Below, in pieces: positions 36,535 to 56,346 of a stretch of DNA of 64,000 nt. The notes beneath the pieces were generated by a model. It was given only the letters and a program-made list of their open reading frames with translations. It was not told the DNA's origin and ran no database searches. A program made the translations under genes and the position numbers. The stretch is from Escherichia coli (lineage in GTDB: Bacteria > Pseudomonadota > Gammaproteobacteria > Enterobacterales > Enterobacteriaceae): NCBI RefSeq assembly GCF_024298765.1, contig NZ_CP101210.1. One strand, written 5' to 3'. Every line of letters starts with the position of its first letter. Positions within the stretch are counted from its first letter, which is position 1.

Positions 36535-36712
36535 GCTTGTTGCCGGAAAAGCAGGCACCTGCCGTCTGAACGGTATCGATCCGGAAGCGTATCTGCGCCA
36601 TATTCTGAGCATACTGCCGGAATGGCCCTCCAACCGTGTTGACGAACTCCTGCCATGGAACGTAGTTCTCACCAATAAATAAGCGTCAATACGGTGCTCC
36701 GTTGACGCTTAC
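36535..36712 (+). mobile_element. IS66-family element, 3' terminal fragment (TnpC C-terminus plus right IR)
   Basis: plus-strand translation ...AGTCRLNGIDPEAYLRHILSILPEWPSNRVDELLPWNVVLTNK* parallels the C-terminus of the IS66 TnpC at 50853-52388; ends with cgcttac (GTAAGCG IR). Confidence 0.7.
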
Positions 36713-37096
36713 TTTAATCCGTTTTCTGAGCTTAGATTTTTCTGTTCCTACCCAGACCGTGGATTTGGAATTCATTTTTTGTCAGGTCAATGCTAATCGT
36801 TAAAACGGCCATAACGCACCTCCACTGGAAGGTTTATCAGTAATATCCTACCGTTGCTTCATGGTCGGGGCGTCCATTCCATTATTATCGGTTTTCCTTT
36901 CTGTTTATAAATGAAAACGCCAGCTGTATTCAGGCTGGCGTCAGGGGAAATGAAGCCTGTTGAGTGAGATTCACCGGTTCTGGTGCAGAAGCTGCAGATG
37001 GCGCAGGGTAAGGACATCTTCTCTTGCCTGCTTAATACAGGACAACAGTGCTGTTTCTGTGGTTAATGGCACTATACCCTGCATCACTGCATTGTC

Positions 37097-37291
37097 TTAC
37101 AGCAACTGGTGAGGGCTGGCATAAGTTGCCGGTGTTTCGGTAGAGTCACGGTCATCCACCACGCGGAGTGAATAACCGTTTTCAGCGGCCTTATTAATCA
37201 GTTCAGTGATATTAACACCATCAATGTCAACGACAATGTGCCCCATATCCAGCGCCTGTACGTTAACGCTGTCGGCTTCCAGTGTCATCAT
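37097..37291 (-). CDS. yeeW: CP4-44-type prophage protein YeeW-like
   Basis: 64 aa, directly downstream of the cbtA-like gene. Confidence 0.6.
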   Translation of the reverse strand: MMTLEADSVNVQALDMGHIVVDIDGVNITELINKAAENGYSLRVVDDRDSTETPATYASPHQLL

Positions 37292-37661
37292 TTCGCCTCC
37301 GGATACTTACCCAGGGTAATGTTATTTACCGTTCTGTAATTGTCGCGGGTCATCAGGCCGGTCGCCCTGCGAGCCCGGAGGATATCGATGCTGTTTATTA
37401 ACTGAGAGCGGGTACAGGCGCTGAATCCCGGCTGGTCGGTAGCACCAGCGCGTATTTTTCCACGAGAAAGTTCACCGCATCACACAGTGAAATGCCTGCC
37501 TCAATATGCTGCTCAATCACACGTTCATCGGCAAAAGGTGTGTCATTCAGTGTGAGGCCATAGTGCTGGTCCAGCAGTCGGGACAGCAGTATCTGCCAGA
37601 TTTCAACAGGAGACGGGCGAGAACTGGCCGCCTGCCCGGGTAATACAGGTAATGTTTTCAT
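37288..37661 (-). pseudogene. cbtA: CbtA-type toxin (cytoskeleton-binding), apparent 1-bp frameshift
   Basis: N-terminal [73 protein letters not shown] then premature stop; the conserved tail ...[51 protein letters not shown] resumes in another frame; span is 374 nt. Confidence 0.65.
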
Positions 37662-37749
37662 ACTGAAGATTTTCCTGATATGCAGATATAAAAATGGAAA
37701 AGTGGCGTGGTGAAAACACCAGGCCGTAGCAGAAGGCTATTCTGGAGAG

Positions 37750-38118
37750 TTAATTTTTCATTTCGGGCGTCGGATAAACAGCCAGATAAACGTAACCACA
37801 ACTGCTGAGGGTATCGGCTTTGCAGGTCAGCCCTTTTGCATACAGCGTGACGGTATGCTGATGGCGGGGATTCAGTTCACCGCTGGTGAGCATGAGTTCC
37901 AGTTGTTTCATCAGCAGCGGAAAGGCCTGGTCCAGGTGGTACGCATCTGCATCGCTGAACAGGCCTCTGATACCGGCGCGGTCGGCAAGGTAATGCAACC
38001 GGTTACCCTCCTGCACCAGACGTGCCCCGAAACAGGGCGTCACGGTGCAGGGCAGCCCCCACCAGGGGCGGTCGTGATTGTCGTCGGGAAGTGTTGTCCC
38101 GGGGAGTGTGTCTGACAC
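37750..38118 (-). CDS. cbeA: CbeA-type antitoxin
   Basis: 122 aa; MSDTLPGTTLPDDNHDRPWWGLPCTVTPCFGARLVQEGNRLHYLADRAGIRG... Confidence 0.9.
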   Translation of the reverse strand: MSDTLPGTTLPDDNHDRPWWGLPCTVTPCFGARLVQEGNRLHYLADRAGIRGLFSDADAYHLDQAFPLLMKQLELMLTSGELNPRHQHTVTLYAKGLTCKADTLSSCGYVYLAVYPTPEMKN

Positions 38119-38197
38119 GATAAAATCCTTACAGAAAATCGGTTAAGAACGGTCCGGTAATGGCGATAATTCTGCTCATCAGAATGCCCTTACTGAC

Positions 38198-38419
38198 TCA
38201 GTTCAGAGTGACGCTCATCAGCCGGACATACGGGCCAAAACTGTCCTTACGGCGTTCAGCAAACACGGCCAGCACACCGGGAATATCCTGCACTTCACGA
38301 CCGGTATACGTTTCAGTGCTGCCGTGCCAGCGGTATTTGCCGGTACAGAACGGAAAAAGACGGGATGCAGGATGCTGTTGGTGAATACGCATGGCTTCAC
38401 CACGGGTGATGATTTTCAT
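38198..38419 (-). CDS. yeeT: DUF987 family protein YeeT-like
   Basis: 73 aa; conserved position between radC-like and antitoxin genes. Confidence 0.8.
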   Translation of the reverse strand: MKIITRGEAMRIHQQHPASRLFPFCTGKYRWHGSTETYTGREVQDIPGVLAVFAERRKDSFGPYVRLMSVTLN

Positions 38420-38481
38420 AATGGGATACCTCTGAAGACAGAAGATAAAAGTGAAAACAGGTGTGATGTGGTTGTGACGGG

Positions 38482-38958
38482 TTAAAGCAGACCATGTTCG
38501 GCAAAGGAGAAAACCTGGCTGCCACCGACTATCAGATGGTCCGGCACCCGGATATCCACCAGGCCCAGTGCCTGTACCAGACGTTCCGTGATAAGGCGGT
38601 CTGCCTTGCTGGGTGTGACTTCACCGGACGGGTGATTGTGCGCCAGCACCACGGCAGCGGCATTGTGGTACAGGGCGCGTTTAATCACTTCCCGGGGATG
38701 GACTTCCGTGCGGTTGATGGTGCCGGTGAAGAGGGTTTCACCGGCAATCAGCTGATTCTGGTTATTCAGATACAGTACCCGGAATTCTTCACGCTCCAGT
38801 CCCGCCATGTTCAGAATCAGCCATTCCCGTGCCGCACGGGTGGAGGTGAAGGCCACGCCGGGTTCATGAAGATGACGGTCCAGGGTTTTCAGGGCCCGCT
38901 GAATAAGGCTGCGCTCGCCGGGCGTCATCGCTCCGGGCAGAAAGGAAAGCTGTTGCAT
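38482..38958 (-). CDS. yeeS: RadC-like JAB-domain protein
   Basis: 158 aa; HNHPSGEVTPSKADRLITERL JAMM motif. Confidence 0.85.
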   Translation of the reverse strand: MQQLSFLPGAMTPGERSLIQRALKTLDRHLHEPGVAFTSTRAAREWLILNMAGLEREEFRVLYLNNQNQLIAGETLFTGTINRTEVHPREVIKRALYHNAAAVVLAHNHPSGEVTPSKADRLITERLVQALGLVDIRVPDHLIVGGSQVFSFAEHGLL

Positions 38959-38969
38959 GGCCTCTCTCC

Positions 38970-39449
38970 TCAGTCAATGATGCGCATAATGGCGCTGCAT
39001 TCCGGATGCTGCAGGGCGTAATCCCGCAGCCGGTAATAATGGACCGTCATGGCATAACACTCCGTACGACAGGCGTGATGACTGTACGTCATCAGACAGG
39101 CAGCAATGCCGGCGGCTTCCGGGCTCATTTCAGCGCGGTTACCGTTCATGGCACTGAACAGTACCCATGTTTCGTCATCATCGTCATCCGGTTCGGGTGC
39201 CATAAATGCGCCACCGTTGTTCAGGGTGTACAGATTCCAGATACCCCCGCAGTAGTCTTCACACAGACGGTCCATCCAGCCGAAGATACGGGGCTCCAGG
39301 GTCACCCACTGTGGAATGAGGCCAAAATGCTGCGGCCAGAAGCTGATGCGCTGTTCATCAGGGACGAGGCTGGCAACCAGCTGAGGCGGATTATTCTCTG
39401 GTGTTGTAGCTGAATAAATTGTGGGGGTATTCTGAGAAACGGTCTTCAT
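38970..39449 (-). CDS. antirestriction protein (KlcA/ArdB/YfjX-like)
   Basis: 159 aa with acidic stretch EPDDDDDETW; position upstream of radC-like gene as in CP4-type islands. Confidence 0.7.
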   Translation of the reverse strand: MKTVSQNTPTIYSATTPENNPPQLVASLVPDEQRISFWPQHFGLIPQWVTLEPRIFGWMDRLCEDYCGGIWNLYTLNNGGAFMAPEPDDDDDETWVLFSAMNGNRAEMSPEAAGIAACLMTYSHHACRTECYAMTVHYYRLRDYALQHPECSAIMRIID

Positions 39450-39530
39450 GAGATAACTCCTTAAATAACAAATAAATGTGTGTTTTTCAGGAACGAAAGC
39501 TGAATGATTCCCTCACTCAGGGAAACGGCA

Positions 39531-40352
39531 TCAGCGCAGGCTCTCCAGCATCGTTTCTGCCATCACCCACAATGCGCGGTTGAGCTTAATGTCGGTATCA
39601 ATGCTGTGAATGGCCCGGGTATGGATACGTTTTCCTCTGGCACTGCGCCCGGAAATCCCGCCTTTCAGCATATTCTCCTGGATGGTCTGATAAGCACTCC
39701 ACAGGTCCTTACCGTAATCCTCCCGGCGTCGTGGTGTCAGAATGTCGGCGGTGGTGACGGGCTGATGTTCGTCACCATAACGGTAAGTCAGCGCCGCCTG
39801 TGCCAGCGCCTGGCGTGCCGGTGGCGGCAGGACCAGCGACTGCATGGCATCACGCTTCTCCTCTATCCGGTCAAACACGCCCACCACCTCGTAAGCCCCT
39901 TCAATGACTCTGTCCACCACATTTCCCCGGTGCGGAACACGTACTTCCCCCAGAGACTGACCACAGACGCAGCCGTTCTGGCAGACGAACCTGAAGTACC
40001 CCGGCAGCATCTGGTAGCTGGAGGTACCGTCATGAGAGTTGAGCAGAATAATTTCAGGGACATGTTCTCCGTTTATCTCTCCGGCCCGCCGCAGACGCAG
40101 CATGTGTTTTGTGTATCCCCGGCGGCCCGGGTCGCGCACACGGGTCTGGCAGGCGAAGAACGGCTGAAAGCCTTCCCGCTGCAGATTTTCCAGGACGGTA
40201 ATGGTGGGAATGTACGCATACCGTTCACTGCGGGAGGTGTGCCGGTCTTCCCCAAAAATACTGGGTACATGGCGTATCAGTTCTTCATGTGTCAGCGGAC
40301 GGTCACGGCGTATCTGGTTTGCAGCATAACCAAAACGACTTGCTAATCGCAT
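39531..40352 (-). CDS. DUF932-family protein (YfjQ/YafZ-like)
   Basis: 273 aa; conserved member of the CP4-type island backbone. Confidence 0.65.
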   Translation of the reverse strand: MRLASRFGYAANQIRRDRPLTHEELIRHVPSIFGEDRHTSRSERYAYIPTITVLENLQREGFQPFFACQTRVRDPGRRGYTKHMLRLRRAGEINGEHVPEIILLNSHDGTSSYQMLPGYFRFVCQNGCVCGQSLGEVRVPHRGNVVDRVIEGAYEVVGVFDRIEEKRDAMQSLVLPPPARQALAQAALTYRYGDEHQPVTTADILTPRRREDYGKDLWSAYQTIQENMLKGGISGRSARGKRIHTRAIHSIDTDIKLNRALWVMAETMLESLR

Positions 40353-40572
40353 ACTTTGCTCCTTATCGGTGGTTAAGATTTACTGGTGCAATAAATGAAA
40401 AAAGCCGCGTCTCCCGGAGAAGACGCGGCCTGACGGGTGAAATGAATAAGGTTTATTGTCTGAGAGGCCTTTCACTGGCGAGCCACGCATTAAGCGGCTT
40501 TCCGGTAACAATGGCTGGGGCTGTATTTACCTTTGATATTAATAATGTGCAGAGAAACGCATGGTTTACTCC

Positions 40573-40983
40573 TTAGATTTTAAGTTTGTCCTGGGCTACA
40601 ACGACAGGTTTTCCGGATGTGTCGATGACTCCTACCGTCGGTACGCCATTTTTGATTTCGAAGAACGGTTTGTTGCTACCTGAGCACAGTTGATTGTCCC
40701 CGTATTCAATCATTTGTGCTTTCCCGGTTTTCAGGTTAACTACCGAGACAGTGTAGTCGTAGCACCAGGCACCACCACGTTCAAGCACGAAAACATAGCT
40801 GTTATCTTTATAGTTGAACTGATTCTTTGTCTGGCAATTCATACCGTCAATTTCGGTACAGGAAAACGCTTCTGTAGTATTAACGTATTTGATGTTATTT
40901 GGCAGTTTTACTTGTTTCGCAGTAGCGAAGACAGAGAACAGAATAGTTACAGCAACGAGTAAAGTTTTGATAAAAGTTTTCAT
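40573..40983 (-). CDS. small secreted protein, unknown function
   Basis: 136 aa; N-terminal signal peptide MKTFIKTLLVAVTILFSVFATA; 4 Cys in mature part; hairpin plus T-run terminator at about 40401-40440. Confidence 0.6.
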   Translation of the reverse strand: MKTFIKTLLVAVTILFSVFATAKQVKLPNNIKYVNTTEAFSCTEIDGMNCQTKNQFNYKDNSYVFVLERGGAWCYDYTVSVVNLKTGKAQMIEYGDNQLCSGSNKPFFEIKNGVPTVGVIDTSGKPVVVAQDKLKI

Positions 40984-40998
40984 GATAGACTCCTTAAA

Positions 40999-41487
40999 TT
41001 AGTTAACCGCAGCTACGTAGTTTTTCACCAGATACGCGAATTCATGCACGCCAATTTCACCGAACCAAACCAGGTAGGCCGGGTCATCTAAACCAAAGTA
41101 ACGGTAGCCAACAACTTCATGGGTTTTTGGGTTATAGAGTGTTACGATAAAGTCCCAGCCGCAGGTATTGGCTTTGCAACCGTCGCCCTGGAACCAGACT
41201 GTACCGTTAATGTTTACTGGCGTGATACCTCCACCAGGGCCATCCATATAGCCGCCTTTACCGAACATGCCGCTCAGTCCGACCGGTTTTAATGCTTTGT
41301 CGATAGCGGCTTTGTAGGTAGCGTCACCTTCGTACAACTCGTACGTTGATGGACACGCTCCAGGTTGTTCAGCCCAGGCTTCCGGGTTACAACTAAGAGC
41401 TTGTTTTACGGTAGCCGCTTCTGCGTTAAAGTTAAAGCCCGTGAACAGAACCGCCAGAAATAACATAAGGGTATGTAAACGTTTCAT
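40999..41487 (-). CDS. secreted protein, unknown function
   Basis: about 163 aa from internal Met of ORF 40999-41790; signal peptide MKRLHTLMLFLAVLFTGFNFNAEA; Cys-containing motifs GACPST and DGCKANTCGWD. Confidence 0.55.
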   Translation of the reverse strand: MKRLHTLMLFLAVLFTGFNFNAEAATVKQALSCNPEAWAEQPGACPSTYELYEGDATYKAAIDKALKPVGLSGMFGKGGYMDGPGGGITPVNINGTVWFQGDGCKANTCGWDFIVTLYNPKTHEVVGYRYFGLDDPAYLVWFGEIGVHEFAYLVKNYVAAVN

Positions 41488-41817
41488 TGTAAATATTCTT
41501 CCGTTGTAAATGGCGCTGGAAAATTTCTCATCAGTGAAACCTTCCGGAAGTTTCCCCCCCTTGTATGATGTATATCGCCAGTATTTTATTTCATCCCGGC
41601 TGTAATTTTTATATTCCCCGGCACGTGCAATAACGCTGACCAGAGATATAAGGCTCATTAATAACTTTACAGGTAATTTCATAATTAAATTTCCAGTGAG
41701 TGAATTGACAGGTGAGGGGTAAAACTTTCTCTCAGGTAATATATATATGAAAATATTTTCAATAACACCAGACAGGAAAAACACCACCACAGGCGGTGGC
41801 GTTTCTTTGGGGCGTCT

Positions 41818-42888
41818 TTATTTAATCCGGGCCATCGCGTTTCTCAGTGCCAAATCTGCCTCTTCCGTTATATCCAGGCTTTTCTGCAATACCGCCTCTG
41901 ACCGGGTCAGTGCCTGACGTGCTGCCAGCGGTTTCCGGATATGCTCCATCGCCAGCATCGTGTCTTCATAGCCCTGCTGACGCCAGGCGTCGGTATGTGC
42001 CGATGTAAAACTGAGCAGACCGCCGCTGTTGCCACCATCACCTGCATATTTCAGCCTTTTCCGGGGACGGATCTCAAGGATTGTGGTGTCCGGAAAAGCC
42101 TGGCGATCCCATAAAGAACCCTCACTCAGATGCGTCACAATCACCATATTGCATCCGGCATCGACCAGAGGCGTCACAGGGGTATTTCCCTGCATATTTC
42201 GCCATCCTCCCATACCACCATCACCGAACATTGTCCCCTGAACCTCACGGGGACGGAACAGCAGGGGCAGCGCGGCTGACGCAAGCAGAGCCTCTTTCTG
42301 CTGTCCGCGGGGCAGGCTCTGGATATGCTGAAAAACGGCGTTTTTCGTGGTTCCGACACCCAGTTCAGCACGAATGCAGTCAATAATATCCTGCATGCCC
42401 CCTTCTGTGGGGTACAGCGACACATACAGCGGTAGCCCGTCTGCCAGAGCATCAGTATCAAGATAATGATCCATCAGCGCTGTCAGGGGCTCATCTGACA
42501 ACAACGGCTGAGCCATCAGATTGTCAAACCCGTTGATTGTCGATATATGGCGAAGAAGCGTCGTAAGCAGTGCTCCTGCACGTCCGGGGATCTGGCAGAG
42601 GTTCATTGCCTGGAACAATTTTTTCAGCAATGAAAAGTAAACCAATCTGTTTACCGACAGCACCTGATTATTCCCCAGATGATCCCAGAGCGCCTCCAGG
42701 CGTACGGCAGCTTCTGACAGATCGGGAGAGGCCGCGATAATGGCACCATTGAATGCGCCAATGCTGGCCCCTGAAACCATGCTGATCTGTGTACCACACT
42801 CTGCCAGTGCCTTAACCACTCCCGCCTGATAAGCGCCCACCGCCCCGCCACCGGACAGCACCAGCCCCGTTTTCATTTCTGTACTCAT
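41818..42888 (-). CDS. patatin-like phospholipase
   Basis: 356 aa; oxyanion-hole SGGGAVGAYQAG, nucleophile elbow GASIG, catalytic Asp motif FGDGGM; start codon overlaps upstream gene stop. Confidence 0.85.
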   Translation of the reverse strand: MSTEMKTGLVLSGGGAVGAYQAGVVKALAECGTQISMVSGASIGAFNGAIIAASPDLSEAAVRLEALWDHLGNNQVLSVNRLVYFSLLKKLFQAMNLCQIPGRAGALLTTLLRHISTINGFDNLMAQPLLSDEPLTALMDHYLDTDALADGLPLYVSLYPTEGGMQDIIDCIRAELGVGTTKNAVFQHIQSLPRGQQKEALLASAALPLLFRPREVQGTMFGDGGMGGWRNMQGNTPVTPLVDAGCNMVIVTHLSEGSLWDRQAFPDTTILEIRPRKRLKYAGDGGNSGGLLSFTSAHTDAWRQQGYEDTMLAMEHIRKPLAARQALTRSEAVLQKSLDITEEADLALRNAMARIK

Positions 42889-43790
42889 GCAGCCCCCTTC
42901 TGAAATATTTCATCGACCATACTTTCAGAGAGGCGTTCTGCAGAGCAGAGGCGAGGCATGCGAACCGGTAAGTGTTCTGCAGCCTGCGTGGTTGACCAGA
43001 TCACCGGATGCTGCTCTTCACTGCACCAGTCTCCCAGCCAGTTAATCGCGTCATGCCACTCGTTATCTGCCTGCTCCCGGCCCTGACCACCAAGCCAGTC
43101 CAGAGTGTTCAGACGCACGGTTGCACTACCGCCACTCTCCTGTGCCATCTGCGTTAATGCTTTATGTCTGAGAATATCCAGTAGCTGGTTAACCTGGCCT
43201 GTTTCGCTCTGACGTATCACATCACCAAACGCGCCCCAGCGAAGCTCTTCAAGTGCCACATAACAACGTCCGGCAGGGGAAAATGACGCATATCGCCCGG
43301 CGCTCCACCATGAGAATATCTGCTCAAGATGTAACTGCGCCCGCTGAACCTGGTCAACACGGTGGAGTTTTTCTTCAAGATGATTCAGTTTATGGTGAAC
43401 CTGATCGGCCAGGGTGAGTAACTGCTCCCGCGTATCTGCGGAATAATGCGCCAGCCTGGCTGTATCACTGACCAGTGAACTGACCCTGTCGTTTACCCGG
43501 GTAATCGCGTAGTTTGTGGTGGCAAGTGACGTTGTCAGCTCCGTCAGCCAGCGCAGGGATGCCTCAACGCCCTGTGCAAGCGAAGCATTGATGGCATTCT
43601 GCCGTGCAGCACCTTCGCCGCTCAGCCCCTCTTTTAACCGCCGGAAGAACGTGCGCTCTCCGGCCGTGCGGATATGCTCCTGTGCAACATCGATACCGTT
43701 TGCGAAATCAACCACAAATTTTTCAGGAAGACAGGTGAGTACCTGACATACCCGGTTATCAGCAATTTGTTGAATAAATGGTGAAGTCAC
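42885..43790 (-). CDS. coiled-coil protein, possible YjcZ-like partner of dynamin-like GTPase
   Basis: 301 aa, helical/coiled-coil character, no enzymatic motif seen; overlapping stop/start junctions with both flanking genes. Confidence 0.5.
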   Translation of the reverse strand: MTSPFIQQIADNRVCQVLTCLPEKFVVDFANGIDVAQEHIRTAGERTFFRRLKEGLSGEGAARQNAINASLAQGVEASLRWLTELTTSLATTNYAITRVNDRVSSLVSDTARLAHYSADTREQLLTLADQVHHKLNHLEEKLHRVDQVQRAQLHLEQIFSWWSAGRYASFSPAGRCYVALEELRWGAFGDVIRQSETGQVNQLLDILRHKALTQMAQESGGSATVRLNTLDWLGGQGREQADNEWHDAINWLGDWCSEEQHPVIWSTTQAAEHLPVRMPRLCSAERLSESMVDEIFQKGAA

Positions 43791-46183
43791 AGCATTGTCT
43801 CCAGTTCTTCCCTTAACGCCTTACTGTCAGTAATGAGCTCAGGAACTCTTTCATTTAACGCCTGAAGACGCCCGGTCAGCCGTTCCTGCGCCTGCTGATC
43901 GCGTTTATGATCTTCAGAGCTCTGAATCAGCGTGTTACGCAGCTGTTCAACTTTCTCCCTGAATGTACAGAAAAAGGCATCGATTTCCTGGCGGACGGGC
44001 TGGTTAATATCCTGCTCAATGGATGCCTGCAGCTCCCCGAAATATGCCCGGGTCAGTGACATCACCTCCTTCCTGACCTTGTTGATATTGATAACACTGC
44101 GGCTCACATCCACGTTATAGTTTTCCCATCCCCATTCTTTGGTGCCAATCCATCCACAAATCTTTCCAATGAAGCTATCCTTCCGACGGCGACGGGTGAC
44201 TGTCTCCGTTCTTTCCTCCATAAGCGCACTCAGATTTGTTTTTACCGCGAGCCGGGTCTGTAACTGACTGACTGCCGGAAAACTGATTTTTACAGTGAAG
44301 CCCTCATCCGCCAGGCGGGCATTGATACGTCCGGCGATGTTTTCTGTCGCATACAGGGCCGTACCACGAAAACCTGTTTCAATCCCGCTGACGATTTTCT
44401 CCAGCTCAGGCCGGAACTGTGCCTCAGCCTCACTGTGCAGGCTGGTCACGGTCGATTCGATTTGCGTCATCAGTTCAAGGGCTTCCCTGCGATTATTTAA
44501 TGTTATCTCGGGGTTTTCCGGATCAAAGACTCGTATCCTGTCATCCTCCCAGCCCGGGTTATTGATACCGGACCATCGATAAATCTTTCCCCATAATCCG
44601 GACCGGGACCTTCGTTGTTCTGTGTCTTCTTCCTCCAGCATTTGCTGTTCTTTGCGTTTACCGGTTCTGAAATAGTCATTCAGTTCCTCTTCCAGTGAGG
44701 TGCAGACCCCCGTGAGTAATTCCCGGGTTCTGGCATCGATCTCCTCCATGGCCATTCTGACATCAGCGGTCACCTGCTCCTGACAGTCCGCGATTTCCCG
44801 GATATCCGCAAGCAGGCTGGTGATATGCGCCTGCAGTGACTGAATGCTTTGCTGTAGCCCCTGATGGCGTAATGACAGATATTCGCTGACATTTTCCGCA
44901 TTCTGCATCAGTTTTGCGGCGGCAGAATCAACCGCCAGTGCCGCCGCTCTGGAATGGGAACTCTGTATGACTTCCGTTATCAGTTGATCGATAAGTGAGC
45001 CTTCCCACAGGTCTGTTGCCCCTTCAGTTGCCAGTTCGCTGTCTTTACAGACGTAATCTTTTTTCATGCGACCGAAAGCTTCCCTGACAAAATCATCGAC
45101 CCAGGCTTCATCAACAGGAAGGGTTCCGTTTTTCCGTAACTCATGAAGCGCACGGTTAGCCAGGTATGCCTGGCGTGAGGATCCGGGATAAACGCGGGAG
45201 GCGGGCAGCACATCGCTGTTCAGCATTGCCGGAACTTTCTGGCGTACGGCATCTGCCCCATCGCCATTGCGGTCTTTCTCATCAAATTTATTGACCAGCA
45301 CAAACAGGCGGCCAACTGATACGTCCGCAATGGCATTAAGCTCTTTACGGACGTCTTCATCCGCTTTTGAGTTCATCTGGGTGTAATCCATCACTGCCAG
45401 AACCGCAGAAGCTTTCTGCAGTTGATCCCGCATCATCACTTCCATCTGCGGCTGGCCGGCTTCATTAGGGCCGGGGGTATCCAGCAGTGTGAGTGTTCCC
45501 TGGCATGCATCCATCCCCACCAGATGGCTGAATTCCACGTCGATCACCGGCAGTTTCTGCACTTCTGCGTATTCATCAAAAGGAAACTCACTCCCCATTG
45601 CCGCAGCAAGACGAACCAGATCGTTTAACGATGCCAGTCCGGTAAAGATTTCCTCCTCCCCGTGGTATTCATTTTTGAGCCAGCCATCATCCGTCAGAAT
45701 ATCCAGCAGTTCACGGGTATCCCCGGTTTGCAGCAGGGTCTGTGCGACTTGCTGTCCTGCCGGGGTGGCGAGTTTTTCCTGCAGTGTGATTAATAAATTG
45801 CGGACAGGCTGAATATGTTCCAGATGGAGGACCGGCTCAGTTTTTCCGGGAACGTGGCGGATGAGTGTCGGTACAGAGGTCATGGGGCGGTTACGGTTAG
45901 GCAGAATTTCCTGCCCCACAATGGCGTTGATGGTGGTTGATTTGCCTGCTTTCATCGTGCCGACAACAGCCAGCACCATCTCCCTGCGGGCGGTTTTGAT
46001 TTGTTCGCCCTCCAGCTCCTCAATTCTTTTCAGCGCTTTCCGTTTATCAAAAAGCAGCCCGTTTTCGTTCTTACTGTCAGATAACACATCCGGCTCATCA
46101 ACCATTTGCCGGAGCAGATTGATATTCAGTTGCAAAAGCCGGTCGGCTTCATCACAAAGCAGGGCGATGTTCTTTTCGTGCAT
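43787..46183 (-). CDS. bacterial dynamin-like GTPase (CrfC/YjdA/LeoA-like)
   Basis: 798 aa; G1 GTMKAGKST, G3 DTPG, G4 NKFD in N-terminal third; long helical stalk C-terminally; RBS aggaagg upstream. Confidence 0.8.
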   Translation of the reverse strand: MHEKNIALLCDEADRLLQLNINLLRQMVDEPDVLSDSKNENGLLFDKRKALKRIEELEGEQIKTARREMVLAVVGTMKAGKSTTINAIVGQEILPNRNRPMTSVPTLIRHVPGKTEPVLHLEHIQPVRNLLITLQEKLATPAGQQVAQTLLQTGDTRELLDILTDDGWLKNEYHGEEEIFTGLASLNDLVRLAAAMGSEFPFDEYAEVQKLPVIDVEFSHLVGMDACQGTLTLLDTPGPNEAGQPQMEVMMRDQLQKASAVLAVMDYTQMNSKADEDVRKELNAIADVSVGRLFVLVNKFDEKDRNGDGADAVRQKVPAMLNSDVLPASRVYPGSSRQAYLANRALHELRKNGTLPVDEAWVDDFVREAFGRMKKDYVCKDSELATEGATDLWEGSLIDQLITEVIQSSHSRAAALAVDSAAAKLMQNAENVSEYLSLRHQGLQQSIQSLQAHITSLLADIREIADCQEQVTADVRMAMEEIDARTRELLTGVCTSLEEELNDYFRTGKRKEQQMLEEEDTEQRRSRSGLWGKIYRWSGINNPGWEDDRIRVFDPENPEITLNNRREALELMTQIESTVTSLHSEAEAQFRPELEKIVSGIETGFRGTALYATENIAGRINARLADEGFTVKISFPAVSQLQTRLAVKTNLSALMEERTETVTRRRRKDSFIGKICGWIGTKEWGWENYNVDVSRSVININKVRKEVMSLTRAYFGELQASIEQDINQPVRQEIDAFFCTFREKVEQLRNTLIQSSEDHKRDQQAQERLTGRLQALNERVPELITDSKALREELETML

Positions 46184-46244
46184 TATTTAACCTTCCTAAG
46201 ACGCATTTTCATGACAACCACGGAGGAGGTCATTTACTACAAAT

Positions 46245-46279
46245 GATCGTTTATAACGATCGATATGATAGTAACGATC
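46245..46279. promoter_or_regulatory. cluster of three GATC (Dam) sites in 5' region of the dynamin-like operon
   Basis: GATC at 46245, 46258 and 46276; aacgatcgat occurs twice 18 bp apart; 62-96 bp upstream of the GTPase start codon. Confidence 0.5.
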
Positions 46280-46400
46280 GATGTATTCTATTAACTTGAG
46301 AAACACAACGCAAGGGGACAACCCGGGTATGGCTGCGTTTGCATAGTGTTTTCATGGAGTTAAAAATCTGTAACAACAGCCTGGTACATCACCACCGGGT

Positions 46401-47312
46401 TCAGAAGAAAATCCAGTTCCATACCACGCGGGCAACAGAGACCACCGAGTCACGGACGGCGCGCAGAACCGTGCGTGCAACAGAGGCAATGCAGACGCTC
46501 TCCGCCGTGTCAAATATCCGGTCCACCGCACCGGTAAACTGTTCACGGGCCTGAGACCGGACAGACTCCGTGCGCAGCTCGTCCTGCAGGCGGGTCATCA
46601 GGGGACTGGCGGCATGGTCGGGAAGTGCTGTCATGAGCGCACTGACCAGCGTATCCAGTTCCCAGCCGGTGCGGGCCGATACGGCAACAACCCGATGTAC
46701 GGGCCGGAACAGACGGAATACCGCCTCCGTTTTTTCGCGAATGTTCTGTGCCTGTGCGGGAGAAGGCTGAATACCGGCCATATCCCATTCATGGCAGGGC
46801 TCCGTTTTATCGGCCTGCATCACCACAAACAGTACCCGCTGATGTCCCCGGTGCAGGATGTGTCGCCAGAAATACTCATCCACAGACAGGGCACGGTCAT
46901 CGGCTTTAATCAGCCACAGTACCAGGTCCAGTTCGAGCAGAATGTCACGGTACAGGGCTTCATACTCTGCATCCCTGTCCCGGCTCTCGCCCACCCCGGG
47001 CAGGTCAGTGATAACCATGCTGTGACCATGGCCATTCAGACGGAAGCGCTGCACTTCCCGGGGGCCGGCGTGAACATCACTGACCGGGGTGACCTCCCCC
47101 TGAAACAGCGCATTACAGAGTGAGGATTTACCGGCCCCGCTTTTACCCATAATGCCAGGCACGGGTTCGTGACTGGTGAGTTTGCGCAGATGTTCCAGGA
47201 TGTGACGGGAAAGTGAGTAAGGCAGGGAGGAGAGCGGTTTTTCAATTGCCTCAATGGCATCAGACGGATTCATACATGTATTCCCGGTGAAAAAAGACAA
47301 AACCCCGCGCAC
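46401..47312 (-). CDS. YeeP/YfjP/YkfA-family GTPase, apparently intact
   Basis: P-loop GIMGKSGAGKSSL, DLPG, VMQADK motifs; possible start at internal MNPSDAIE (47273). Confidence 0.8.
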   Translation of the reverse strand: MRGVLSFFTGNTCMNPSDAIEAIEKPLSSLPYSLSRHILEHLRKLTSHEPVPGIMGKSGAGKSSLCNALFQGEVTPVSDVHAGPREVQRFRLNGHGHSMVITDLPGVGESRDRDAEYEALYRDILLELDLVLWLIKADDRALSVDEYFWRHILHRGHQRVLFVVMQADKTEPCHEWDMAGIQPSPAQAQNIREKTEAVFRLFRPVHRVVAVSARTGWELDTLVSALMTALPDHAASPLMTRLQDELRTESVRSQAREQFTGAVDRIFDTAESVCIASVARTVLRAVRDSVVSVARVVWNWIFF

Positions 47313-47356
47313 CGGAAAGGTGGCGGGGGATTCACGGAAATAATATCTGTCTGAAA

Positions 47357-48520
47357 TTATCTGGAATCGATTTGGCTGTTCTGCCTGGTTGCCACCAAAT
47401 CATGGTACGCCTGCTCAATCATTTCATTCAGCAGTTTTTTTGGGAGGACACCACGACTTCGGGCAATACTTTCAAGCTGTTTGTGGATTTTTCCGGACAG
47501 TTTCAGAGGGACGGAACCATCAGCACGTTCATCACGCCTTTTTTGTTGCTCCCGGGCACTTTTCAGCTCATCAAGAAGAATCGCTTTATGCTGAATCCTG
47601 GGGGCCTGGAAGGAGACCTGCGTAAACTTCGCTCTGTTCCGTCTGGGATTACTTTCCAGTAAAAACTGTACCTGTTGCTCATTCCAGCCCTCCCAGTTAT
47701 CAAACGTGGCGCAGGCAAACCAGTATTTCTGCTCCGGGGTAAGGGGATTCAGCGGGGTTCCCACACACCGGACCTGCATGGCGTTCCATAACCAGTCACA
47801 CTGTTCACTGTCCCTGCTGTCCACCCACGAAAAGGGGGAGGGGTAATCATTGTTTATGCTGGCCCATTCAGAGAATACTGAGTTGATAATCGTCCTCGTA
47901 GCCTCTGGTCCGGATTTCAGCAGGTAACTGGAGCAGAACCATATAATTTCACGGTAGATTTTATCCGGATGCACGGTGCGCATCGGCTTTTCTCTGGGAC
48001 CGGCAATCTTCGGTTGCGATGGAAACCCCGTGGCAAACCGCAGATGTTCCGGGGGCATTCCTGAACGTTTTTCAGGAATGGGTGTGAGTCCTGCGTTTCT
48101 GGTCTTTTCCGCTTGTCCGGTATTGCCTCCGGCCGGAGTGTTGTCGGGAGTATCTTCCGGAGGCGAGGTGTTTTCATTAGTTGGGGGAACAACAGCAGAA
48201 CTGTCCATCTCCGGAATGGGTTGAGGGGCATAATCACTGTGGTAGCCAGGGGAAAGCGTTAAGTCCCGAAGGATGACATCAGGTTCCGGGCAGTGAGTGC
48301 CACCGGGAGTGAACGGGAGTTGTTGCTTTTGGGAGAAAAATGTATTGTGAATGCGGGTATACAGCTGGAACAGAAAAAAATAAGATGCCCGTGGTTCTTT
48401 TTTTAACCACTGTGTATATTCCTCTATGGCACCGAGCTGTTGTTTGTGCCGTTTTACAGCATCGATATACGGACAGCTGGTGCAGATATCATCCAGTTCC
48501 TTTCCCACAATACACCTCAC
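47357..48520 (-). CDS. hypothetical island protein with low-complexity Pro/Thr-rich linker
   Basis: 387-aa ORF; central PPTNENTSPPEDTPDNTPAGGNTGQ region; C-terminal helical segment; no recognised catalytic motif. Confidence 0.45.
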   Translation of the reverse strand: MRCIVGKELDDICTSCPYIDAVKRHKQQLGAIEEYTQWLKKEPRASYFFLFQLYTRIHNTFFSQKQQLPFTPGGTHCPEPDVILRDLTLSPGYHSDYAPQPIPEMDSSAVVPPTNENTSPPEDTPDNTPAGGNTGQAEKTRNAGLTPIPEKRSGMPPEHLRFATGFPSQPKIAGPREKPMRTVHPDKIYREIIWFCSSYLLKSGPEATRTIINSVFSEWASINNDYPSPFSWVDSRDSEQCDWLWNAMQVRCVGTPLNPLTPEQKYWFACATFDNWEGWNEQQVQFLLESNPRRNRAKFTQVSFQAPRIQHKAILLDELKSAREQQKRRDERADGSVPLKLSGKIHKQLESIARSRGVLPKKLLNEMIEQAYHDLVATRQNSQIDSR

Positions 48521-49984
48521 CTGCTTTTCTCACATTTGCAGATTTTAAAAAAGCAAACAAAAACCTCCGTACATGATGTACAGAACAATCTACCAGGTAG
48601 TGGCGTCAGAAAACCTCCGGGCCGCCTGCACTTTCCGGAATGCGCCGGTTATGAAAAACCGGAAATTCAGTCTCTGTTGTAAGATGTACCCTCTGATACT
48701 ACGTTTTCTCTGTGTATTTAACTCACTGTATTTATTGTCTTTTTAAGCTTGACTGATATTCTCCGGTCATAGTGTGCCGGATATACATCCCGTAAACTTC
48801 TCATTTTTATATAAAAATACTTGCACTCTCTTCAGCGCATCTGTCTCCTTTAAGTAAAAAATGTTTTCACGTATTGCTGTAAATTCATTTTAAATCAGTA
48901 TATTACCTTGATATTGCTGTCTCCTGGTTTGATGCGTAATCGTTCTGCCTTTCTGGATGATTCTGGTGCTTCCGGGTGCATTCTCCTCTGCACATGCAAC
49001 AGTTCGTCATCGCCACGCTCCCAAAAAGCATATAAAAACGAATCGAATTTGATATTTTTTTCAATCGTTTTTCATAGGAATTTCGTAGGGTATTCTCCGC
49101 TATAACCTCCATATTTGCTGTCTTTTTCTTCATAAATCGTATGCAATATAGCCTGTCTGTCAAGACCTCTTCTCTGCTGTTGAGGAGACGATCTCATTTT
49201 TGGTCTTTTCCGGGAGAGAGGCTGTCAGATGAGCGAGCCGGATATACTGTCAGAGGTACACCCCGTAGCAGACCTGTGCTCCCATTTCCGCGATCCGGAA
49301 CCAACAACACCCTACGGTTAATACCATTTGAAGCGTCAGGTACTGCAGGAAGTTCCCCCCTGCGCGGACATCGGTTCCTGCCGACATCTCACAATACGGC
49401 CAGACTGTCATGCAGTAACACCCGCATGCGGTCTGCGGTTTTAAGCGCACTCTCCCGTTTTCAGTGCACCGATAATGCGTCATAGTAAGTCTGGGGGAAG
49501 TTACGGAATGCCTGTTAAGTGGTGCCGTGGGTGGAGACAGCTTACTTTTCTACAGCAACTGCAGTCATTCAGGATGATCAGGAGATATTCTGTCAATGTC
49601 ACGATCCTGCCATTTTCGTACCCGCTAAGATACTTCCGTTACTGATGCTGTCCGCTTTTCACCATTTCATCCTCACTGACAGGCGTTGCGTTTTGGGTCA
49701 TCACCACAGCTTTACGTTTCTCTTTTAACCGGTAACGCTCTCCTTTGATATTCAGCGTGGTTGAGTGATGCAGCAGTCAATCCAGGAGCGCTGTTGTCCG
49801 GCAACCACCATATCAACTTCTTCCCGGGTGTGGCGGAGAGGTGGTATCCTGGCTGAGTTTCGAAGCGAACCGTTCTTTTTGACGGGCGCATTTTACGTCC
49901 GGGCTGAATGTAGTAACGCGGCATGGAACGTCGGCCCGTATACCATTGCCTTAATCTCCGCAAAGATAACCTCGTCATTCCGGA

Positions 49985-49992
49985 CATTCTCT
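49985..49992. repeat. 8-bp target-site duplication (left) of IS66-family insertion
   Basis: cattctct identical to 52430-52437. Confidence 0.85.
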
Positions 49993-50075
49993 GTAAGCGT
50001 CGTCTGAGTACCGTCTGGTCCCGAATCCAGGATCCTGTAACTTAAGCACCCACTTATTTTGCAGGTGGACACCTC

Positions 50076-50459
50076 ATGCGCGCTAAAGAAAGACTTCCCC
50101 GGAAACACTATTCCCCTGAATTCAAAATGGAACTGGTCAGGCTGGCTCTTGAAGAAGAAGGCAGTATTGCCGCACTGGCCCGGAAACATGACGTCAATGA
50201 TAACCTGCTCTTTAAATGGATAAGGCTCTGGCAGCGTGAAGGGCGGGTCTGTCGGCCCCGAAAAAACTCATCGTCGCTTCCTGCCCTGATACCCGTGCAG
50301 CTTCAGGCGGGCTCTTCTCTCCCAACCTTCGAACTACCATCCTGCTCTCCTCCCGCTACCTGCCACATAAAATGTCGGGGAGGAGAAATAACACTGACTC
50401 ATCCCTCTGCTGAACTCATGAGCACTGTCCTGCGCGAACTGATGCGGGGGCCTGTATGA
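50076..50459 (+). CDS. IS66 family accessory protein (orf1/TnpA)
   Basis: 127 aa; HTH-like N-terminus; first ORF of IS66 element. Confidence 0.8.
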   Translation: MRAKERLPRKHYSPEFKMELVRLALEEEGSIAALARKHDVNDNLLFKWIRLWQREGRVCRPRKNSSSLPALIPVQLQAGSSLPTFELPSCSPPATCHIKCRGGEITLTHPSAELMSTVLRELMRGPV

Positions 50460-50803
50460 TAAATCTTCCCGCAGGCACAAAAATCTGGCTGGTTGCCGGT
50501 ATCACCGATATGCGCAACGGCTTCAATGGCCTCGCCGCAAAGGTGCAGACCGCGCTGAAAGATGACCCGATGTCCGGCCACGTCTTCATCTTCCGGGGAC
50601 GCAGCGGCAGTCAGGTAAAACTGCTCTGGTCCACCGGCGATGGTCTGTGCCTGCTGACAAAGCGACTGGAACGTGGTCGCTTCGCCTGGCCCTCAGCCCG
50701 CGATGGCAAAGTGTTCCTGACGCCGGCGCAACTGGCGATGCTGATGGAAGGTATCGACTGGCGACAGCCAAAGCGGTTACTGACATCCCTGACCATGTTG
50801 TAG
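50456..50803 (+). CDS. IS66 family accessory protein (orf2/TnpB)
   Basis: 115 aa; overlapping start with orf1 stop; typical IS66 organisation. Confidence 0.8.
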   Translation: MINLPAGTKIWLVAGITDMRNGFNGLAAKVQTALKDDPMSGHVFIFRGRSGSQVKLLWSTGDGLCLLTKRLERGRFAWPSARDGKVFLTPAQLAMLMEGIDWRQPKRLLTSLTML

Positions 50804-50852
50804 CGCTCTTTATCCTGGTTGTCGCAGAATAAGCCTGGTAAAATACAGGCTT

Positions 50853-52388
50853 ATGAACGACACCTCTTCTGACGACATCCTTCTGCTGAAACAGCGCCTG
50901 GCCGAACAGGAAGCGTTGATCCACGCCCTGCAGGAAAAGCTGAGCAACCGGGAACGCGAAATAGACCATCTGCAGGCGCAACTGGATAAGCTGCGCCGGA
51001 TGAACTTCGGCAGTCGTTCCGAAAAGGTATCCCGCCGTATCGCGCAAATGGAAGCTGACCTGAACCTGCTGCAGCAGGAAAGCGATACGCTGACCGGCCG
51101 GGTGGATGACCCGGCAGTGCAGCGCCCGCTGCGTCAGACCCGCACCCGCAAACCGTTCCCTGAGTCACTCCCACGGGATGAGAAGCGGCTGCTGCCGACT
51201 GAGCCGTGTTGCCCGGAGTGCGGTGGTTCGCTGAGTTACCTGGGTGAGGATGCCGCCGAACAGCTGGAGCTGATGCGCAGCGCCTTCCGGGTTATCCGGA
51301 CAGTCCGTGAAAAGCATGCCTGCCGTCGGTGCGATCGCATCGTTCAGGCCCCGGCTCCTTCGCGCCCCATCGAACGGGGGATCGCCGGACCGGGGCTGCT
51401 GGCCCGAGTGCTGACCTCAAAGTATGCAGAGCACACACCGCTGTATCGCCAGTCGGAGATCTATGCCCGCCAGGGTGTAGTGTTGAGTCGTTCTGTACTG
51501 TCGGGCTGGGTGGATGCGTGTTGTCGTCTGCTGGCACCGCTGGATGAAGCCCTTCAGCACTATGTCCTGACCGACGGCAAACTCCATGCTGACGATACGC
51601 CTGTCCCGGTGCTGTTGCCAGGCAATAAGAAGACGAAGACCGGGCGCTTATGGACGTACGTTCGAGACGACCGCAACGCCGGATCAGCGCTGGCCCCCGC
51701 AGTGTGGTTCGCTTACAGCCCGGACAGAAAAGGTATCCACCCTCAGACCCATCTTGCAGGCTTCAGTGGCGTACTGCAGGCTGATGCCTACGCCGGGTTC
51801 AACGAGCTCTACCGCGACGGCCATATAAAGGAAGCCGCGTGCTGGGCCCATGCCCGCCGAAAAATCCACGATGTTCACGTCCGTACCCCGTCAGCCCTGA
51901 CGGAGGAGGCGCTGAAACGGATCGGCGAGCTGTATGCCATCGAGTCGGAGCTCAGAGGTAAAAGAGCAGAGGAACGGCAGGCAGTCCGGCACCAAAAAGT
52001 GCTGCCGCTGCTGGCGTCACTGGAGGGGTGGCTGCGGGAGAAACAGAAAACCCTCTCAAGGCACTCAGAACTGGCGAAGGCGTTCGGGTATGCGCTGAAC
52101 CAGTGGCCGGCGCTGACCCGCTATGCAGAAGATGGCTGGGTGGAGGTGGATAATAACATTGCCGAAAACGCCCTACGACTGGTCAGTCTGGGGAGAAAAA
52201 ACTGGCTGTTCTTCGGCTCGGATCATGGTGGTGAGCGCGGTGCGTCACTGTACAGTCTTATCGGGACGTGCAAATTAAACGGCGTGGATCCGGAACGCTA
52301 TCTGCATCATGTACTTGATGTCATCGCCGACTGGCCTGTGAACCGGGTGGGTGCTCTGCTCCCGTGGCGGGTTACTCTGCCCGCCTGA
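50853..52388 (+). CDS. IS66 family transposase (orf3/TnpC)
   Basis: 511 aa; N-terminal leucine zipper, CPECGG...CRRCD zinc motif, DDE region. Confidence 0.9.
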   Translation: MNDTSSDDILLLKQRLAEQEALIHALQEKLSNREREIDHLQAQLDKLRRMNFGSRSEKVSRRIAQMEADLNLLQQESDTLTGRVDDPAVQRPLRQTRTRKPFPESLPRDEKRLLPTEPCCPECGGSLSYLGEDAAEQLELMRSAFRVIRTVREKHACRRCDRIVQAPAPSRPIERGIAGPGLLARVLTSKYAEHTPLYRQSEIYARQGVVLSRSVLSGWVDACCRLLAPLDEALQHYVLTDGKLHADDTPVPVLLPGNKKTKTGRLWTYVRDDRNAGSALAPAVWFAYSPDRKGIHPQTHLAGFSGVLQADAYAGFNELYRDGHIKEAACWAHARRKIHDVHVRTPSALTEEALKRIGELYAIESELRGKRAEERQAVRHQKVLPLLASLEGWLREKQKTLSRHSELAKAFGYALNQWPALTRYAEDGWVEVDNNIAENALRLVSLGRKNWLFFGSDHGGERGASLYSLIGTCKLNGVDPERYLHHVLDVIADWPVNRVGALLPWRVTLPA

Positions 52389-52429
52389 CCAGCTTCACTT
52401 CGTCAATACGGTTCTCACTGCACGCTTAC

Positions 52430-54425: not shown

Positions 54426-55376
54426 TTGCGAAAAGATGCTTCCGCACGCACGCGCGATAAAGAGGGGATAGTTTTCGTGAGGACAGGGAGAGAAGCAGGC
54501 GTTCTGATAATTGCAGAGTTGTTTTCGGAGGTGGTTACAGTGAGTCAGCCCGTTCCTGGCGAGCAGGAGACTGATATCACCGATGGGATAAGGTTGTCTG
54601 ATTGGTATTATAAATATAAGAAGTCATCAGAGAGTAACGTAAAGGATTTGCCAGAATAACCTAAGAGAGTAAATCTCTCCGGTAACAGAGCGCTGTGAAG
54701 CATTCTGTATCAGAGTGCAGATACATGAACGCTGATGCGTAAAATCAGCAGTGACACGCCAGCTCCCCCTATGCCCATTCCTGTATAAGACATGAACTGA
54801 GTGTATTAATGCTTCTGCCCTGAGACTGAGCCGGTGAGTGAGGGGCTGAGAAATCCCTCTTGACACAGCTCTAACCAGAAATACTTCCCCGGTTGTTGCG
54901 GTGCGTCCGGATCCCCGATAACGGAACACTAAGGCTGTATTGCGGGACACCGGGTAAGTAGCAGCCCGTAAGGCGTTCTGTCAACGCCAGAAAAAATGAT
55001 TTCCCACACGCGTTATAGACTCACTCCTGTGGACCTGGAAGCCCGTAACTCTGCGGTTGCCCACTGACTGACGGAACTGACCGCAAATTTTACGAGTGCG
55101 TGCTGGGCTTCAGTCTGGTCACCTGAGCGTTCGGTAACGGAGGCGCGGGCGGTAATAGGCTGATTTTCAGGTATTACCGGCTTACAGCGTGTGGTTGATA
55201 TTGAGGGGCTGTGAGTTTCGCGTATTTGTCAGAAACCCAGACGAGTTTTCCTGTATGGGACGAAATAAGGCAGCGGCAATACCTGGAAAAATTTAATATG
55301 GTATGAAGGAGAACCTGTCGGTTACGCTTAATATACCCGGTACACTGTCAGCTCAGGGGATACATGAACCGTTATC

Positions 55377-55580
55377 TCACCAGCTACACAGTATATACAC
55401 ACTGACGCTGACAGTAGTCAGCAGGACCACAATAATCAGTGCCAGCAGTATGGTAACGATACGGTCTGTATTCCGGTAATAGCCGAAGGGGTCGACAGAA
55501 CCACAATACGGGCAACACACTGTATTATGAGTAATCGCGTTTCCACAGTCCCTGCACTTCTTTTTGCGTATCACCATCAC
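55377..55580 (-). CDS. small zinc-ribbon membrane protein
   Basis: 67 aa; CRDCG...CCPYCG followed by C-terminal TM helix IVTILLALIIVVLLTTVSVSVYIL. Confidence 0.45.
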   Translation of the reverse strand: MMVIRKKKCRDCGNAITHNTVCCPYCGSVDPFGYYRNTDRIVTILLALIIVVLLTTVSVSVYILCSW

Positions 55581-55740
55581 TCCCTCCTCACAGCCTTACC
55601 CGTAACCGGTTTTTTACATTAAAAAAACAACGCTGAAAATTCAACCGTCAGTCCGGAGACGACCGTTCGGGTTATCACAGAGTGCCTGAGACAGTGTCCT
55701 GCCGGAGGTCACTTCAGGGACTCTGCGCATTTTTTACGAC

Positions 55741-56346
55741 GTGGCTATTCCGTATGAACCATACGGAGATTTAACCATGACCTACAAATACAACCCCTTC
55801 TGGCAGCAACGTATTCGTGAGACGGTGCGGCACGCACTGAATGTTCATCCCCGCCTGACGGCATTGCGGGTTGACCTGCGTTTCCCGGATGTACCGGCAG
55901 CAACGGACGCAGCTGTGATATCCCGCTTCATCAATGCCCTGAAAGCCCGAATCGACGCTTACCAGAAACGTAAGCATCGGGAAGGTAAACGCGTGCATCC
56001 CACAACCCTGCATTACGTCTGGGCCCGGGAGTTTGGGGAGTGCAAAGGTAAAAAACACTATCACCTGATGCTGCTGGTTAACCGGGATACCTGGTGTCGT
56101 GCCGGTGATTACCGTGCTCCGGGATCACTGGCCGGGATGATTAAACAGGCGTGGTGCAGTGCCCTGGGAGTGGATGTCGGGTGCCATGCCACGCTGGTGC
56201 ATTTCCCGGCCTGGCCGGCGGTGTGGCTGGAACGCGATGATGACACTGGCTTTCAGCAGGTGCTGGAACGTGCTGACTATCTGGCGAAGGAACATACCAA
56301 AGCTCACTGCACCGGTGAGCGCAATTTTGGCTGTAGCCGGAGTTGA
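55741..56346 (+). CDS. hypothetical prophage protein (possibly YfjJ/YagK-like)
   Basis: 201-aa ORF; His/Cys-rich (HYHLMLLVNRD...); family assignment from memory only. Confidence 0.4.
   Translation: MAIPYEPYGDLTMTYKYNPFWQQRIRETVRHALNVHPRLTALRVDLRFPDVPAATDAAVISRFINALKARIDAYQKRKHREGKRVHPTTLHYVWAREFGECKGKKHYHLMLLVNRDTWCRAGDYRAPGSLAGMIKQAWCSALGVDVGCHATLVHFPAWPAVWLERDDDTGFQQVLERADYLAKEHTKAHCTGERNFGCSRS

Follow-up and report, generated by a model that had tools for sequence, protein, structure and literature searches.

An agn43-type Dam/OxyR switch probably controls a dynamin/YjcZ-like/patatin operon on a CP4-44-type island of Escherichia coli

Dam-dependent phase variation in Escherichia coli is textbook knowledge for two systems, pap fimbriae and Ag43. 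Further loci confirmed to depend on Dam are, to our knowledge, few, and almost all of them encode surface structures. At agn43 (flu), transcription is repressed and Dam is kept out while OxyR occupies the unmethylated operator; once the GATCs are methylated, OxyR can no longer bind and the gene can be transcribed. Both states perpetuate themselves through rounds of replication. OxyR and Dam also operate together at gtr of phage P22 and Salmonella and at opvAB, where pairs of GATC sites 13 bp apart lie inside OxyR half-sites. Unlike the locus described here, gtr and opvAB carry, upstream of the promoter, four GATCs in two pairs together with three or four half-sites, and OxyR is thereby given alternative activating and repressing positions. 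An architecture of this type was ruled out for our locus, where two in-phase half-sites and three GATCs lie downstream of the -10 element. At pap (Lrp/PapI), std (HdfR), and the sci1 T6SS (Fur), a regulator likewise competes with Dam for GATC sites and heritable methylation patterns result, but the regulators, site architectures, and sequences are unlike those found here, and no homology to them was found.

The locus under study lies in a 64-kb stretch of E. coli DNA (hereafter the window), on a CP4-44-type island whose genes are here carried by the minus strand. Between positions 46100 and 46420, the window is a 100% match to E. coli S88. An intergenic region of 217 bp (46184-46400) separates a dynamin-family gene, the ATG of which is at 46183 (minus strand), from its upstream neighbor, a YeeP-like GTPase gene (46401-47312, minus strand; the RefSeq start corresponds to window position 47273). 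The 3' end of the latter aligns with K-12 yeeP. An earlier note on this DNA had placed the operon directly downstream of a YeeP-like GTPase gene, as agn43 is in CP4-44, and this position was confirmed, with the island adjoining sbmC-yeeA. Upstream of the GTPase gene, the island is interrupted at 49900-52400 and ~55000-57500 by IS66-family elements (tnpA/tnpB/tnpC) and several pseudogene fragments.

The first gene of the operon (43787-46183, minus strand) encodes a 798-aa dynamin-family GTPase, a paralogue of CrfC/YjdA (RdcA) that matches the NCBIfam CrfC model over its full length with 558 bits, below the equivalog cut-off of 1146 bits. RefSeq annotates it as 'dynamin family protein', and precomputed Pfam matches are PF00350 and PF01926. 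Two genes follow on the same strand, each overlapping the end of its predecessor by 4 bp. These encode a 301-aa YjcZ/RdcB-like protein (42885-43790; RefSeq and Pfam YjcZ PF13990, E = 4.5e-70) and a 356-aa patatin-like phospholipase (41818-42888; Pfam Patatin PF01734, E = 7.4e-24), the latter with weak matches to RssA and a CBASS lipase. Further downstream, two hypothetical genes (40999-41682/41790 and 40573-40983, together spanning 40573-41790 on the minus strand), which are ORFs annotated by RefSeq as 'hypothetical protein', may belong to the same transcription unit. The longer product had no Pfam match and neither had an NCBIfam match; the same pair comes after the operon in copy 2 of E. coli CFT073.

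RdcA/RdcB (YjdA/CrfC and YjcZ), the core GTPase pair of E. coli K-12 (PMC6510439), have full-length paralogues in the first two genes of the operon. In contrast to the core pair, the island copy scores 558 bits against the cut-off of 1146, its translation is coupled to that of a patatin-like lipase, and it is carried by a mobile island, with the switch in front of it. A known anti-phage defence system was considered and rejected as an identity for the operon, with PADLOC-DB v2 (e.g., Eleos/LeoA-LeoBC and CBASS lipase effectors) returning weak partial matches only (LeoBC, 2.7e-5; phospholipase effector, 1e-4) and nothing for either the YjcZ-like protein or the two hypothetical ones. A homologue search with the dynamin protein returned E. 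coli sequences only, at least 91% identical, and so provided no cross-species view. High variant counts in crfC, rssA, and yeeP from a study of ATCC 25922 were judged uninformative, as they may reflect mis-mapping between paralogous copies.

Three GATC sites lie within the intergenic region, at 46276-46279 (GATC-I, the first in the direction of transcription), 46258-46261 (GATC-II), and 46245-46248 (GATC-III), starting 93, 75, and 62 bp 5' of the dynamin-family ATG, respectively. The coordinates given for them previously (46276, 46258, and 46245), and their placement 62-96 bp upstream of the GTPase start, hold. The 10-mer AACGATCGAT, said to occur twice, was found at 46255 and 46273 and is in fact contained in a repeated 11-mer, TAACGATCGAT, at 46254 and 46272; the repeat corresponds to ATCGATCGTTA recurring at GATC-I and GATC-II within the predicted operator described below. 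By itself, the clustering of GATCs is not beyond chance. There are 211 GATCs in the window, for which random placement gives approximately one triplet within 31 bp per window, and a second triplet (21140, 21145, and 21157) lies inside a 356-aa minus-strand ORF without an OxyR-like match, serving as a chance control. The case hence rests on the context of the cluster, and with that context included it is far beyond chance. No GATCs other than the switch triplet occur between 45619 and 49190. Across the island, GATC-free stretches were recorded at 36582-42069 (5.5 kb) and 46280-49189 (2.9 kb), and GATCs number 77 in the 36-64 kb part of the window versus 134 in the 1-36 kb part.

Local alignment of 46184-46340, which holds the promoter, operator, and leader, to three switch regions was evaluated against 500 dinucleotide shuffles, which scored 17 on average and 27 at most. 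The alignment score was 49 for K-12 flu (z = 13.1), 54 for O157:H7 cah (z = 15.5), and 55 for the Citrobacter braakii switch (z = 16.2). In each comparison the aligned block extended from the -10 region, TTAATAGAAT, through the three GATCs and stopped ~20 bp past GATC-III. The similarity to the agn43 regulatory region that the earlier note had anticipated is therefore present, with the same -10 and three GATCs. The yeeP-isrC-flu region of K-12 reads TAGAATAAAACGATCAATATCTATTTTATCGATCGTTTATATCGATC, and its GATC-I aligns with that of the window. GATC-II and GATC-III are 13 bp apart in the window, agn43, and cah; GATC-I and GATC-II are 18 bp apart in the window versus 19 bp in agn43 and cah.

The -10 hexamer TAGAAT (46285-46290, minus strand), part of the TTAATAGAAT block, is the same in the window, O157 cah, K-12 flu, and the Citrobacter switches. 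A weak -35-like hexamer, TTGCGT (46308-46313, minus strand; 3/6), can be read from the sequence at a spacing of 17 bp, and O157 cah is preceded by an identical hexamer at identical spacing. Beginning 3 bp after TAGAAT is a predicted OxyR operator of 37 bp (46246-46282, minus strand), ATCGATCGTTACTAT-catatcg-ATCGTTATAAACGAT, composed of two 15-bp half-sites 7 bp apart. When both strands of the 64 kb were scanned with the OxyR consensus ATAGnTnnnAnCTAT-n7-ATAGnTnnnAnCTAT (20 specified positions), 46246-46282 gave the best score, 16/20 (8 + 8), the next best being 14/20; the K-12 agn43 operator in the corresponding register also scores 14/20. All three GATCs overlap this predicted site by sequence match, in keeping with the proposal that, as at agn43, they overlap an OxyR operator. 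Half-site scores of at least 8/10 occur at 29 positions in the window, three of them in this stretch, where the third (46277-46291) overlaps the first half-site by 6 bp and represents an alternative register. The placement of the operator just after the -10 suggests the same repressor geometry as in agn43. Since IsrC, the leader RNA of flu, has its 5' end at agn43 GATC-I in the K-12 record, transcription in the window would by analogy start at ~46279.

Read in the direction of transcription, the order of elements is TTGCGT, 17 bp, TAGAAT, aca-TCGATCGTTACTATCATATCGATCGTTATAAACGATC, the leader, AGGAAGG, 7 bp, and ATG. The switch cassette (46228-46400, minus strand) is homologous to the GTPase-cah and yeeP-flu intergenic regions, and the cah-type homology stops at 46228. 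Adjoining it, the operon leader (46184-46227, minus strand), with the Shine-Dalgarno sequence AGGAAGG at 46191-46197, matches the last 44 bp of the O157:H7 cah-dynamin spacer. Simple scans of the window found no promoter- or terminator-like site between the operator and the ribosome-binding site. A terminator-like hairpin at 46261-46245 was rejected, being the palindromic second OxyR half-site in the operon leader with a poor T-tract. A structured or known RNA in the leader was likewise discarded; Rfam gave only a meaningless miRNA match (E = 0.22), and the 110-nt leader folds with z = -1.8. A consensus promoter scan misses TTGCGT and reports TTAATA-18-TATCAT (46294-46265) inside the operator instead. 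This -10-like TATCAT (46265-46270, minus strand), which is TATTAT in 11 of 47 natural copies, pairs at 18-bp spacing with TTAATA (46289-46294), and the two could form a further promoter, which bound OxyR would occlude as well.

Compared with agn43 of K-12 CP4-44, the window thus has homologous DNA, the same -10 block, and three GATCs in one two-half-site operator, and in both a YeeP-like GTPase gene lies upstream on a CP4-44-type island. The two differ in what the switch precedes, agn43 driving an autotransporter adhesin whereas the switch in the window fronts a cytoplasmic dynamin-like/YjcZ-like/patatin operon. They also differ in the first half-site (6/10 in agn43, 8/10 in the window) and in the leader, which in the window is ~96 nt long with no IsrC-like segment and no meaningful Rfam entry. 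Likeness to cah of O157:H7 extends to the same GTPase 3' flank, the TTGCGT-17-TAGAAT promoter, three GATCs, the same dynamin operon downstream, and the same island, but in O157:H7 the switch is separated from the dynamin gene by cah (2.85 kb) with its leader and by a 110-bp spacer; these are absent from the window. By every feature that can be tested, the locus belongs with the agn43-type Dam/OxyR switches.

In O157:H7 TR01, the order is GTPase gene, switch (GATC spacing 19/13), cah, the 110-bp spacer, and the same dynamin/YjcZ-like operon. The window corresponds to this arrangement minus cah, the cah leader, and most of the spacer, with a clean junction between 46228 and 46227 (the megablast breakpoint, query position 169). 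That the module inherited an agn43-type switch by position, as had been suggested from the sequence, is borne out by this correspondence. The rearrangement appears to be an exchange of cargo just downstream of the operator, the adhesin gene being missing relative to O157:H7; alternatively, O157 could represent the window arrangement with cah inserted. Simple scans found no promoter- or terminator-like site in the O157 cah-dynamin spacer, hence the operon may be under the switch in both arrangements. The direct switch-operon arrangement is present in 1983 of 5426 complete E. coli genomes (~37%), and an Ag43/Cah-dynamin junction in 635 of the 5426. Carriers of the operon include CFT073, Nissle 1917, ATCC 25922, S88, and O121/O145 STEC.

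Published SMRT data provide a direct view of Dam protection in one of these carriers. Blow et al. (2016; PMC4752239, supplementary file 6) listed just 18 GATCs of CFT073 that lack methylation on both strands, and six of these lie at its two agn43 genes. Using RefSeq annotation and alignment, we assigned six more of the 18 (268724/268737/268755 and 2358454/2358472/2358485) to the switches before two CFT073 dynamin-family operons. These sites lie 62, 75, and 93 bp upstream of both dynamin genes, as in the window, and in near-identical sequence, such that the sites homologous to GATC-I, GATC-II, and GATC-III are all unmethylated. Twelve of the 18 unmethylated GATCs in CFT073 therefore fall within four switches of the agn43 type, one pair preceding agn43 and the other preceding the dynamin operon; no GATC inside the CFT073 dynamin genes is on the list. 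Dam protection of the switch sites is thus observed in vivo in a close relative, in one bulk dataset with ~30x local coverage. The earlier note had proposed calling methylation at the three GATCs, with uniform methylation as the outcome that would speak against a switch; the published data on CFT073 show the reverse, non-methylation on both strands.

CFT073 copy 1 (C_RS01345; 3766-6163 of the retrieved segment) has a frameshifted dynamin gene and a degraded GTPase gene and has kept the three protected GATCs, so protection does not require a functional cargo. The GATC clusters of the operon switches were originally assigned to a TonB-dependent receptor (PMC4752239). The receptor gene, c2518, is single-copy in the regions examined and is not near copy 1, and it has two unmethylated GATCs of its own directly upstream (NC_004431 2357478 and 2357504), ~1 kb from the operon switch; the receptor label hence looks like a mis-assignment of the switch clusters. 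The two c2518-upstream sites probably explain the label and may constitute a separate protected site. Two other GATCs near c2518, 2357527 and 2357533, are not among the unmethylated sites listed.

To assess constraint on the switch, we compared 47 natural copies (23 haplotypes), comprising metagenome copies retrieved with a leader 22-mer outside the switch and copies from E. coli genomes. Among positions belonging to the -35, the -10, the OxyR consensus, or a GATC, 2 of 36 columns were variable, versus 39 of 159 other columns (Fisher one-sided p = 0.006, approximate because haplotypes are related). Within the 37-bp operator, variation affected 2 of 23 consensus or GATC positions versus 6 of 14 'n' positions (p = 0.02, approximate for the same reason). 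The -10 TAGAAT was invariant in all 47 copies, and 46 retained all three GATCs. The remaining copy, on metagenome contig QZLM01002248.1, has lost GATC-III, which is changed to TATC at the position homologous to 46248; the substitution creates CTAT and a 17/20 OxyR match and leaves two Dam sites. Loss of GATC-III thus gives a better OxyR match, which argues that the GATCs are kept elsewhere for methylation and not for OxyR binding. The variant itself could be a locked or OFF-biased allele. The functional positions of the switch are under selective conservation.

We consider it likely that a Dam/OxyR-protected switch of the agn43 type (46228-46313) controls the dynamin/YjcZ-like/patatin operon. 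A sigma-70 promoter (-10 TAGAAT at 46285-46290, weak -35) would start transcription at ~46279, and the 37-bp operator, covering ~-3 to +34, would hold all three GATCs. With the GATCs unmethylated, an OxyR tetramer would bind, block RNA polymerase, and shield the sites from Dam, and the OFF state would be inherited. Were Dam to methylate the sites after passage of the replication fork and before OxyR rebinds, OxyR would no longer bind and the operon would be ON, again heritably. In this scheme OxyR is the predicted protecting protein on the strength of its consensus match, and both the transcription start and reversible switching are proposed by analogy with agn43. The closer-to-consensus operator could bias the switch strongly to OFF, with ON cells very rare.

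A related but clearly less probable reading is constitutive silencing, in which OxyR, held unusually tightly by a near-consensus operator, is bound in essentially every cell, the GATCs are always unmethylated, the operon is permanently off or basal, and the locus is a fossil of an agn43/cah switch with no useful flipping. A permanently bound repressor would leave the sites just as unmethylated in bulk data, and the unmethylated sites in the CFT073 SMRT data fit OFF-biased switching and a locked state alike, although both agn43 copies, known switchers, look identical in the same dataset. The operator is the stronger match (16/20, against 14/20 at agn43), as silencing would favor, and one CFT073 copy fronts a pseudogene. 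Against permanent silencing, GATCs that OxyR binding does not need, as the 17/20 variant lacking GATC-III illustrates, are kept in 46 of 47 copies, and this retention suggests that methylation matters.

We regard it as very improbable that the sites are protected by a protein other than OxyR, such as an island-encoded regulator or another LysR-type protein, which would make the switch Dam-dependent but OxyR-independent, or not epigenetic at all. Other Dam switches do use Lrp, HdfR, or Fur, the OxyR site is here a predicted one, and the binding-site column is blank for these GATCs in the supplementary table of PMC4752239. Yet the full OxyR architecture is present, with two 15-bp half-sites of 8/10 each and a 7-bp spacer, the homology to the agn43 operator, itself defined by experiment, extends base for base, and substitutions avoid the OxyR-consensus positions. 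A chance GATC cluster without regulatory function in AT-rich intergenic DNA, in favor of which stand the expectation of about one three-GATC cluster within 31 bp per 64 kb and the other cluster at 21140-21157, is contradicted by the homology z-scores, the unique OxyR match, selective conservation, and non-methylation in CFT073, and is effectively refuted.

Beyond E. coli, a homologous switch comes after a YeeP-like GTPase gene with 58-60% identity in both C. braakii and Citrobacter amalonaticus. Cargo was readable in C. braakii only, the C. amalonaticus locus being too short. There, the switch (5109-5145, minus strand) precedes genes for two small signal-peptide proteins of 154 and 157 aa (4551-5015 and 3977-4450, minus strand), neither with a family match. 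Next come DUF932, antirestriction, and RadC genes; here a different cargo occupies the same slot. In K-12 CP4-57 (yfjP-yfjQ) and CP4-6 (ykfA-yafZ), the DUF932 gene lies 91 bp after the GTPase gene, and the interval holds a GC-rich hairpin and no GATC switch. These two switch-free intervals rule out that the switch is simply part of the GTPase gene 3' flank and indicate that it travels with the cargo. From these arrangements, the switch appears to head a variable cargo slot and to be absent when the slot is empty.

Elsewhere, Citrobacter werkmanii (7176-7212, minus strand) and Raoultella ornithinolytica (5097-5133, plus strand) carry a block of three GATCs resembling that of agn43, CGATCAATA...ATCGATCGTTTATATCGATC, which is not preceded by a GTPase gene. 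Both blocks have an extra GATC and an OxyR-like half-site ~55 bp further upstream and are followed by small membrane or secreted proteins and then by SLATT_4-domain genes; they may represent another type of cargo under a related switch. A scan of IMG/VR for the switch pattern gave no match.

The mechanism proposed here is not new; the novelty lies in the locus itself, in how common it is, and in a new reading of published methylome data. In a search of full texts available without subscription, no paper was found that connects the operon with Dam, OxyR, or phase variation. Should the switch behave like that of agn43, the module would be bimodal and mostly OFF in culture, which would account for its lack of a known phenotype; the module would then have to be locked ON, by an oxyR mutant or Dam overproduction, before a phenotype is sought. 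Bulk transcriptomics and mutant screens of carrier strains would in that case be confounded by the state of the founder colony, as is already documented for agn43.

More tentatively, and with rather less confidence than we place in control of the operon by the switch, we propose that a portable epigenetic promoter heads the cargo slot of the CP4-44 family, which extends from the YeeP-like GTPase gene to the DUF932/antirestriction/RadC genes, such that whatever is inserted there becomes phase-variable. Cargoes on this reading would be Ag43, Cah together with the dynamin operon, the dynamin operon alone, and, in Citrobacter, two small secreted proteins. About one-third of E. coli might then bet-hedge a membrane-remodelling module, with a heritable minority of cells ON; the dynamin/YjcZ-like/patatin module is possibly costly when expressed. 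If true, Dam-dependent phase variation would here act, unusually, not on a surface structure but on an intracellular lipase/GTPase machine, perhaps one of defence or vesiculation. These data point to a reusable epigenetic promoter on CP4-44-type islands, behind which cargo can be exchanged.
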